Part shown: one piece after another, positions 36,168-39,607 of the stretch
Numbering within the stretch: the stretch's first letter is position 1
Layout of the letters: each line of letters opens with the position of its first letter
NCBI GenBank assembly: GCA_951406725.2
Contig: OX597818.1
Span: 44,082,001 to 44,146,000 of the forward strand
DNA from: Octopus vulgaris
Taxonomy: Eukaryota
DNA length: 64,000 bases
Reading direction: 5' to 3'
The notes under the pieces: model-generated
What the model was told of the DNA's origin: nothing
The model's input: only the letters and a program-made list of their open reading frames with translations
The model's database searches: none
Translations under genes and position numbers: made by a program

Positions 36168-37068
36168 CTTGCACGTTTGTTTGGTTTTTGTTGAGGGTTA
36201 TTCTTGACTGTTCGTGATCACCAGGTATAGGTATCGTCTCCAAAGGTACAGCCTGCGGACAGGTGGTTCGCGACAGTTGTCGCTCCACATTGTTGCTTTC
36301 CTCCATTCCTGCTTCAGATGTTTTGTTCCAACTCTGAGTGGTGTTCTGCTCGGCAATCTGTGAAGTAGAACGACCATCTGACGACAACGGTGGTTGTTTA
36401 ATGACAGGTTGTTGTTCTCTAGAATGTTCATGTTTTCCTTGTTGTTGCATAGCTGAAGTTAGTTCTACACCACCAGAATCGGGAGATCCAGGGTGATTAA
36501 CACTGACATGATTATTTGCATTATCAGACTTCTTACTCGTTTCCATTTCATTCGAAGTAGTATTTTTCATTATAGCTTTATTAGATTCCATAACGGGCTG
36601 CATTGATCCTAATCCTACCTCCAACAAGGGATTTTTATCGGGAACATTGTCATTTCCATCTTCATTTTTATTTATGTTACACTCGGATAGACGGTGGTCT
36701 AACGAGGAATCAGACCCTGCTGTATCTGAAGCAGTGAATGTTGATGGTGAGCCTGTTGTTGTGGTTGTTGTCAATGTAGTACTAGCGACTGTGTTGCTTG
36801 ACATGCACGATGTCGTGTTGTTGCTAGTTACATCGAAGCTCGAGACTTTAGCCTCGCTGTCTTTGCCATTTTCGCTAAGTACCGTGTCTACTGCAGCCGC
36901 GTTTGTGACAACAACACCACCACAATCGCAACTGCTGGTGCTCGACGTAGTCCTGTCGGTATTATCCTCCTTCGGAAAGGGACTACTGGTGGTGGGAGCC
37001 CCGGGACTGTCTGTTGTTGTGTTTGTTTGGGCTACGCCTCCGTGTACCACTTTCAATTGATCGTCCAT
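36168..37068 (-). CDS. First coding exon of an unidentified host gene (Ser/Thr/Asn/Gln-rich, likely disordered N-terminus)
   Basis: 302-codon ORF (MDDQLKVVHGG...TNVQG) in unique, CpG-retaining sequence. ATG context CAAATGG. Donor CAAG|GTGGGT just before the stop (phase 1). No domain recognised. Confidence 0.85.
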
Positions 37069-37410
37069 TTGCGTGCGAGGGATTGGTTCAGTCGCTCACA
37101 CACTTTATTGTGGCTTCCTTCCCTCCCAACACTCGCTCAACTTACCGCCGTTATATCAATAACGACAGCCATCACAAGATCTCACTCTCGTTCTCTCTCG
37201 CAAACACACGCGAGATTTCCCTTGGAATAGCAACTTTGCTCATTAAATTCGTTTGTTTACTAAGAAAATACGATCGTCACCAAATTATAAACTACCAAAT
37301 AATTACGACTTGTAATTATCTATATTTTGTTTCAGTTAACATTTAAACTGTTTTCTATCTATAGAATTTAATGAATAACTCTTTTATTTTGCATGCCACC
37401 TCCAATATGG
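37069..37410. promoter_or_regulatory. Putative divergent promoter and 5'UTR region
   Basis: 338 bp between ATG 37068 (-) and ATG 37407 (+). CpG retained locally. YY1-like CAATATGGCG overlaps the + strand ATG. Confidence 0.55.
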
Positions 37411-38512
37411 CGTCACAGTCAACAAGTGTTTTCATTGACAGGTAAGAAGGGCTTTTGTAGTAATTTTCAACTTCACTGTTTACTGATAATCATTTGGGAG
37501 TTTACAAAAAAAGTGTAAAAATACTCAGTCATAAAAATATTTGTTTGTCAATCCATAGGTGGTTTTTGGTATCATGATTTATGTGTCTTGGAATCAGGAC
37601 TCTGAAGTTATGTTGGTTGAGTAATAAGTTGCAGACCCTACGACCGGTCTTTGGACATGTTTACGTTACTATCAGAATGACTTTGTTTTTTTTATTTTCC
37701 AGATTGAATATGCATCAGGTTTCGGAAATTCCAGAAGAAGGCGATGATAGAAACTTCACTACTTGACATTGCACTCCTTATTCCCGAAGTAGAAAAGGGT
37801 AATCGAACATGATGATTCTGAAGATGATTCCACTGATCCAGTGAATGGTTTAGGAAGAAGTGAACTGCCGAGAAACTCAGTGTGATTTCGTGCCAAAAGG
37901 AACGAACGATGTCAATGAAGAGGAAACTGTAAGTATACCCAAATCTGTTAGTCAACAAAACAGATAAAAACCTGAAATGGGAGAAAAAAACTGTACCAGT
38001 ATTTGATATAAATGTATTTAACACTGTTTCGAAACCAGTGCCAGAATTTTTCATATTAAGTGAATTAGAGGCGGAAGTTTTTAAACTTATATTTGATAAA
38101 GCCATTTTCCCAGAATACCTCTCATGAAACTATCCTTTATGCTTATCAGAAAAACACCACCTTGAATGCATCTGATAATGAAATATGGATGATGTCTAGA
38201 GGACTTTTGCTATCTGGTGTTTCTAAATCTGCTAGTAAAAGGACCTATTCGTCACCTGAGAAAGACATTTAAGTTGATGGATTCTAATCCAATATAATCA
38301 TTTTGAAGATGTTCTGCATCTTATTTGAAGGATTATGCAAACAGCTTATCCAGTATAGAACCAATTTTAGATCACTTAGGAAAAAAGTTTCTTGAGCTGA
38401 AGACTTTGGATGAACATATTTCTCTCAATGAATACAGGATTTCTAATTTTGTTTGTTACTTTACCTAGCAACATTTTAGATTTGGGTTAGAAAAGTGTCT
38501 GTTCTGTTACTG

Positions 38513-38543
<31 letters not shown>

Positions 38544-39345
38544 GGAAAAGCAATTGGGTTCAACAAAAGTGTTGAAATCAAAAACTAGTAAATTAGATCA
38601 ATAAAGGAAATGTGCCAAAAAAAATCTGGATATAAAGTATATTTTGATAATTATTTTACCATCCTATGATCTTTTCATCCACTTATCGGAAATTGGTATT
38701 TGTGCATTAGGAACTATATATATGAGAAATTAGGTTTGGGAATTGCCCTTTTACCAAAAACTGTAGCATTGAGGAAGATGAAAGTAAGCACTGAGATTTC
38801 TTCAATGACCACTGTATTTGCAATAAAATAATGGCAATAATGTGCTCACCTTAGCAACAAAATGAAATTTGTCGATAATTGGCTGAACAAAACGATTTTC
38901 CCTGGAAAATCTCAGTGTACAAGTCCTTTAACCAGTTGCTATGAACCATTACAACTCCTTCGTGGGATGGAAGTGGATTAACTATCTCAATGGATAGCAA
39001 GACATACAAGAGGAAAAGGTGGTGGTGGCCAGTCTTCATTTATTTTCTTGATGTGACTGTAATGTCTGCTTGGTTACTTTGAAAGAAATCAAAGAACAGT
39101 ACAAATCCTCTTTTCCAGTTCTGATGGTGTTCAGCTGTTGCAGTTTTGAAGATCTATACGGATTTTGCATCCTATGGAGGAAGACATCAGTCTGCATGCA
39201 GTACAACTTTTCAGTTTACAGTGATGGCTTGACTCACAGGCTTCACTCAGAAATCAAAGATGTAGTGTTGCACTTGTAAATCCACATTTTCACCTTCAAA
39301 ATGTGATGTTAGTTCCATCCCAAATGTCAAAAAGTATACTAGACT
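37407..39345 (+). pseudogene. Decayed piggyBac/PGBD-like transposase gene with a 5' intron
   Basis: Frameshifted motifs in order: IEPILDHLGKKFLE..LDEHISLNEY (~38355-38435), GYKVYFDNYFT (~38628-38660), IGICALGT, NHYNSFVG..VD, KRWWWPVFIYFLDVTVMSAWLL (~39014-39080), and a Cys-rich tail (KCDV..HPKC). Exon 37407-37441 |GTAAG splices in frame to the ttttccag| acceptor at 37703. AATAAA at 39373 and 39417. Confidence 0.88.
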
Positions 39346-39607
39346 TGTTATGAACTAAAACAGATGTTTATCAATAAATGTTTTTTTTTTTGTGTGTGTG
39401 CTGAATATGTGTCTTAAATAAAATTTGTTTTATTTGAAATGTCTATTTTTATATCCAGACTGCATTGTGTCCTAAATAGACACTTTGTAACCAAAATTCT
39501 GTCAGTATTGAAACATTGAAAATTTGAAAGGTGGTCTTTATATGCAGCTGAACATAGATGGATGCTTTGTTAGAAGACTGAACACTGCAGTTTTCACCTT
39601 ATATGAA

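Follow-up and report, generated by a model that had tools for sequence, protein, structure and literature searches.

In the stretch of Octopus vulgaris DNA analysed here (64,000 nucleotides, hereafter the window), a decayed piggyBac element lies beside the start zone of a MINDY gene, and the intron built into this transposon is still spliced, in what is probably a non-coding RNA that leaves the CpG-rich host promoter divergently. This RNA is likely to yield no protein product of note. The element itself appears, from sequence comparison, to be a piggyBac copy of about 37235-40678 with a presumed left boundary. The features of the locus, in window coordinates, are the following.

36168..37068, minus strand: initial coding exon of the MINDY-1/2-like deubiquitinase gene that is the host gene (protein identity, domain, RNA contig edge)
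37069..37226, minus strand: 5' leader of the host gene, with the CpG-rich start zone used in both directions, most likely host DNA (host contig ends, base composition)
37220..37441, plus strand: exon 1 of the divergent RNA, mostly transposon 5' UTR and the short first coding exon (contig starts; homology to the sister copy L004 from 37324)
37235..37251, plus strand: tentative candidate for a degenerate left end (gapped alignment, spacing)
37407..37409, plus strand: transposase start codon, opening a spliced frame of 32 codons (44 from the in-frame ATG at 37371)
37442..37702, plus strand: phase-2 intron native to the transposon (261 nt, GT..AG), which is still spliced out (4/4 runs; phase in the sister and family copies)
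37703..37928, plus strand: second exon of the divergent RNA, running up to another donor within the dead ORF (ends of contig matches; donor GTAAGT at 37929)
37703..39340, plus strand: decayed piggyBac transposase ORF (tblastn with intact transposases)
39119..39370, plus strand: alternative third exon inside the relic (joint 37928 to 39119, GT..AG, one run of organism B)
39373..39422, plus strand: two AATAAA hexamers, at 39373 and 39417, putatively the element's own poly(A) signals
39526..40589, no strand assigned: later insertions that split the element's right end, namely an abundant short repeat, present twice, and one further repeat (gap in the sister alignment)
40662..40678, no strand assigned: right terminal inverted repeat (TIR, 13 nt) and TTAA target site, common to L004 and L108

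The coding remains are those of a dead transposase. P0001 and P0017, two intact PF13843 proteins that had been found by querying with the relic's frames, aligned along the relic in tblastn with E values of about 1e-17 to 1e-19 and reached its cysteine-rich end. The P0001 alignment consists of four blocks (frames 2, 3, 1 and 2) with three frame changes and nine stops, and Pfam recognized the transposase family in none of the relic's three read-through frames (0/3), nor in any of those of the relic and L004 together (0/6). The codon for the first catalytic aspartate is AAT at 38427 (D to N), the second is GAT at 38646 and the third is probably GAT at 38976, followed by a stop; a (TA)13.5 tract occupies 38517-38543. 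Having neither an open ORF nor a full DDD triad, the relic does not qualify as an active piggyBac. Upstream of these remains, the ATG at 37407 lies within CAATATGGCG, the donor AG/GTAAG is at 37441/37442 and the acceptor ends at 37702, so that the joined frame reads MASQSTSVFIDR followed directly by LNMHQVSEIPEE and, 32 codons long, meets its stop at 37764-37766. The first-pass annotation had placed the ATG, its 338-bp spacing from the host gene, the donor, the acceptor, the in-frame joint, both AATAAA hexamers and the (TA)n tract precisely where we find them, and its report of many stops and frameshifts and of a D-to-N change at the first catalytic site is borne out by the counts above. Further AATAAA hexamers occur at 38600 and 38822.

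The right end of the element is clear and belongs to a dispersed family. Its 17 nt (TIR and TTAA) have 37 exact copies in the genome, compared with none for a reversed control; some of the exact copies form inverted pairs, with lengths of 214, 229 and 642 bp. One such pair (L073/L074, C7:42806364-42806592) and others like it represent a MITE family of approximately 214-229 bp with the relic's 13-nt TIR and TTAA. The extent first given for the relic, 37068..39422, therefore holds as to the presence of the relic and misplaces the end of the element, which is at 40662-40678. Between the two, the alignment with L004 stops at 39525 and restarts near 40590, leaving about 1.06 kb of later insertions. 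The left end is far less distinct. In a gapped global alignment, the candidate at 37235-37251 had a score equalled by 22/1000 shuffles, an optimistic value in that this was a second try after a negative local test, and its ungapped match to the family left end was no better than shuffles; it has TTTG where TTAA is expected. Its distance to the ATG is 168 nt, versus about 165 nt in L004 once the repeat insertion of that copy is removed. When L060 and L076, two family ends, were aligned locally with the 5' region, 85/300 and 28/300 shuffles, respectively, did as well, and an inverted-repeat search over 36800-41000 returned no pair marking both ends. The TTAA at 37336 was rejected as left end, as sister homology extends 12 nt past it.

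Two full-length sister copies were found, L004 and L108, which suggests that autonomous copies of the family are few. L004, recovered by DNA search 3.9 Mb away, is broken and 71-84% identical over aligned columns; it shares exon 1, the donor and the right TIR by homology, and its own left end matches at 15/19 positions (2/300 shuffles). L108 (C1:80.112 Mb), reached by protein search, is likewise broken and shares the right TIR. A young and abundant fold-back repeat (about 530 bp, with 92-98% identity between chromosomes) sits in its 3' UTR, and when L108 was used as a query for further members of the family, hits to an unrelated fold-back repeat swamped the result. Genome-wide, there are at least 119 PF13843 matches, most of them with stops. 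Three piggyBac ORFs are stop-free over the matched part (L021, G000:C15:60.548 Mb; L022, C4:74.657 Mb; L023, C13:40.976 Mb); L021 and L022 are nearly identical and so would be recent copies, and L023 is more divergent.

Comparison with these relatives indicates that the short first exon and phase-2 intron of the relic belong to the transposon itself, being common to the sisters and to other TIR-bounded piggyBacs. In L108, L078 and L085, the acceptor phase matches that of the relic and the same leucine follows, and the latter two have a candidate short first exon; L085 retains TTAA-TIR ends on both sides and L078 the right end. The clade of L078, L085 and L108 thus seems, by these alignments, to carry a phase-2 intron before its transposase. 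In L004, the acceptor AG has been lost, though exon 1 and donor are homologous. Three proteins called automatically (P0026, P0032 and P0037) start inside the pyrimidine tract. A native acceptor and poly(A) signals have been described in piggyBac by Newman et al. (PMC2268245). Compared with L004, the window copy is 76% identical in exon 1, 84% in the 3' part of the intron, 73% in exon 2 and 71-81% beyond, an even profile that singles out no region as better kept. The start context, described at first as 'YY1-like', is not special, because ATGGCG also begins the intact piggyBac ORFs L021 and L022 of the same genome.

These observations bear on a more ambitious reading, put forward in the first-pass annotation, in which a once-domesticated PGBD gene lost its ORF and persists as a spliced lncRNA. 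The intact ATG, donor, acceptor and AATAAA, the spliced junction and the decayed left end of the element would all suit such a history, and lncRNAs from lost coding genes are known (PMC5577775). However, the integrity of ATG, splice sites and poly(A) signals is no sign of domestication, since the piggyBac clade has them natively, and the relic retains a perfect right TIR and TTAA whose family is dispersed, carries an intron native to that family and contains no region better preserved relative to its sister. Nor did a close intact relative emerge from protein searches with its broken frames, which gave one match at 33% in a first collection and 34 matches (25-53% over partial stretches) among 1.84 billion representatives. 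The first collection includes MINDY proteins from Argonauta and from three Octopus species, so that an intact orthologue, if annotated, would likely have surfaced, with the proviso that broken-frame queries lower sensitivity and that protein collections cannot show unannotated genes. With its 32-codon frame, the relic is not the intact ORF of a domesticated PGBD gene; domestication is unsupported, and a lapsed PGBD gene strikes us as highly improbable.

On the other side of the start zone, the first coding exon of the host gene matches the N-terminus of P0002, whose record bears the name Octopus vulgaris, at 100% identity, the host protein contains PF04424 according to Pfam, which matched no domain in exon 1 alone, and the exon edge at 36168 is supported by RNA-like contigs. 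The Argonauta protein initiates at the same methionine, with 46% identity over the exon, and given this common N-terminus the MINDY gene is likely older than the insertion. A second MINDY exon was not found in window positions 1-36167 or in the preceding 30 kb, so the first MINDY intron would be longer than 66 kb. The host ATG (37066-37068, minus strand) stands head-to-head with that of the transposase, 338 bp apart. Host contigs terminate at 37150, 37221 and 37226, a weak hint of start sites, and plus-strand contigs begin from 37220, in agreement with the earlier proposal that the two share a start zone. Within this zone, positions 37069-37234 have a GC content of 0.49 and 11 CpG in 166 nt, and the 5' part of the element has a GC content of 0.29 and 5 CpG; the CpG observed/expected ratio (o/e) is similar in the host leader and the 5' part of the element, about 1.2, and another measurement at the promoter gave 1.1. 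The promoter core, that is, the GC- and CpG-rich part at 37069-37234, is most likely host DNA, and transposon DNA would lie directly upstream of the host start, from the presumed left end about 10-20 nt past the host contig ends. The other first-pass proposal, that the 5' region of the transposon provides the promoter of the host, thus has the first of these points against it and the second in its favour. In cell assays, piggyBac favours start sites and CpG islands (PMC10954464).

Evidence for the divergent RNA comes from sequencing runs. Of 24 runs listed, none of them recorded as RNA, 20 contain part of the window, and we aligned contigs of four, which come from four studies and two coded organisms (A and B); their RNA nature is a guess and the contigs are unstranded. 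All four skip the 261 nt of the intron at the 37441/37703 junction, as the first-pass annotation had predicted, and the junction is used in both organisms. The GT..AG at the skipped intron fixes the RNA strand as plus, though the contigs are unstranded. Plus-strand contigs start at 37220 in three of the four runs, about 15-19 nt outside the presumed left end of the element, bearing in mind that contigs cannot show true start sites; in the fourth run, plus-strand and host contigs are merged into one. The two-exon part is 448 nt long in all four guessed-RNA runs, longer than 200 nt and on the strand opposite the host gene. Matching ends at 37928 in every run, at the second donor (37928/GTAAGT), so that the RNA imagined along the relic is indeed spliced and departs from the transposase at this point instead of following it. 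Beyond 37928, three runs carry 79, 836 and 99 extra letters, which are unplaced within 35800-39900 among the matches listed. One of the four runs joins 37928 to 39119, with 30 letters on the short side; the longest ORF of this isoform, the one for which non-coding status is shown, has 51 codons, a count to which the main third exon does not contribute, and run coverage over 37929-39118 is thin (depth 0-4.5). A candidate third exon, with an acceptor at 43027 and AATAAA at 43145, lies in a repeat and is a candidate terminus of the divergent RNA. This repeat (window 42895-44003), which by eye we take to be mariner-like, holds the strong acceptor at 43027 and matches a stretch about 116 kb downstream. 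A search for a processed, intron-less genomic copy of the RNA revealed none, its two matches being the locus itself and L004. The literature searched, with supplements outside its scope, contained nothing on this locus, and a published octopus lncRNA annotation mentioned in PMC13282606 may already include this RNA.

That the junction is used in organisms A and B while the ORF has decayed, and that the relic keeps an acceptor which L004 has lost, could also be explained if the left end of the element, with its first exon and intron, had been co-opted in cis at the MINDY promoter, where splicing of the divergent RNA would tune or set host output. The closeness of the presumed left end to the host contig ends fits this proposal, as does exon 2, which is nearly invariant between organisms A and B (0 and 1 differences in 229 nt). 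By contrast, exon 1 shows 3-4 differences over 219 sites between these organisms, the stretch rich in GC and CpG belongs to the host, with a GC content of 0.29 in the element's part, and the host gene, with an N-terminus common to Argonauta, likely predates the insertion. In run X9, exon 2 has 0/229 differences versus 14/488 elsewhere in the relic (p=0.007, post hoc), but 10 of these 14 fall in a single stretch, which in that organism is exonic too; for exons 1 and 2 together, p=0.013 in X9 and 0.054 in X13, and p=0.44 against the one non-exonic stretch (post hoc). As the tests are post hoc and the promoter-near part is unmethylated, the low variation of exon 2 is a weak hint of constraint, counting against the account favoured below, and we regard co-option as unlikely.

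Further along, the base composition changes. Beyond 37928, the CpG o/e of the relic is 0.20, versus 0.53-0.57 and 0.70 in the sisters, and values as low are found in 7/58 piggyBac locus rows (some loci being counted twice). From 40 to 80 kb, 4-kb bins have values of 0.25-0.55, so that low CpG o/e persists rightward over 40 kb or more. In octopus, methylation falls on gene bodies and spares transposons (PMC9476566), and the low CpG of the relic would fit long residence within a transcribed unit. This leads to another account of the RNA, in which exons 1 and 2 are the 5' UTR, with an upstream ORF of 32-44 codons, of a plus-strand coding gene that shares the MINDY promoter and has its coding exons far downstream. 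A long gene could explain the depletion of CpG, long introns do occur here (a second exon of MINDY was not found within 66 kb), and one contig has 836 unplaced letters after 37928. However, 131 plus-strand open frames in the approximately 200 kb downstream gave no Pfam match above the curated cut-off (five were weak, one of them a reverse transcriptase piece), and 11 frames from downstream splice-site candidates gave no Pfam match; such scans miss short exons and Pfam-less proteins, and about 47% of the region was first masked as repeat. On the minus strand, matches above the cut-off were confined to LINE pieces (2/140 frames). We think it improbable that the RNA is the leader of such a gene. 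Two minus-strand candidate exons about 150 kb downstream (L124:7888-7947 and L125:9468-9626) include one weak SH3 match (E 0.024), and a 760-bp (ATC)n microsatellite lies at window 61286-62046.

We therefore favour, as probable, a non-coding divergent RNA assembled from the transposon's own parts, and its origin can be pictured as follows. The element would have landed in a TTAA immediately upstream of the host start and in the orientation pointing away from the gene. Polymerase leaving the host promoter divergently would then have met ready-made splice sites, giving rise to a stable spliced RNA. The transposase ORF would subsequently have decayed without constraint, and a donor inside it would now cause most of the ORF to be skipped.

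Several known systems resemble this locus in part. The piggyBac-like elements and 'PGBD-like' copies described by Bouallègue et al. (2017, PMC5381638) share the TTAA, a 13-nt TIR starting with CCC and a DDD transposase with a C-terminal cysteine-rich region, and in the terms of that account one clear TIR and a broken ORF place the relic in the 'PGBD-like' class and not among PGBD genes. In contrast to that account, where introns are discussed for the domesticated PGBD5, PGM and TPB2, the family of the relic has a 5' intron, preceded by a short first coding exon. The domesticated PGBD1-5 and KOBUTA (PMC5381638) are alike in transposase origin and in transcription from a host locus, but keep a selected ORF at orthologous places, whereas the relic lacks an ORF and no intact orthologue of it was detected. 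PGBD3 in CSB, where piggyBac acts as a natural exon trap (PMC2268245), provides a parallel in its native acceptor, 3' poly(A) signals and host promoter; unlike PGBD3, the relic fuses no host exon, faces away from the host gene and has a dead ORF, and its RNA uses the element's own donor before leaving the ORF. A further parallel is provided by lncRNAs produced from bidirectional promoters with the help of transposon splice and poly(A) signals (PMC5577775), which are also divergent and spliced, with transposon-derived exons and short ORFs; here, in contrast, both first exons and the intron come from the gene structure of one DNA transposon.

TE fragments are found in more than 35% of octopus transcripts (PMC9115989), and the locus adds to the transposon-derived divergent lncRNAs already known (PMC5577775, PMC9115989). 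It illustrates cleanly, and in a case open to dating, that a single step may give birth to a spliced divergent RNA, when an intron-bearing transposon lands by a host promoter. It is also a warning that a dead piggyBac ORF need not have been domesticated merely because the ATG, splice sites and poly(A) signal around it are intact. It would matter more if it were true that the insertion altered MINDY regulation in octopuses.
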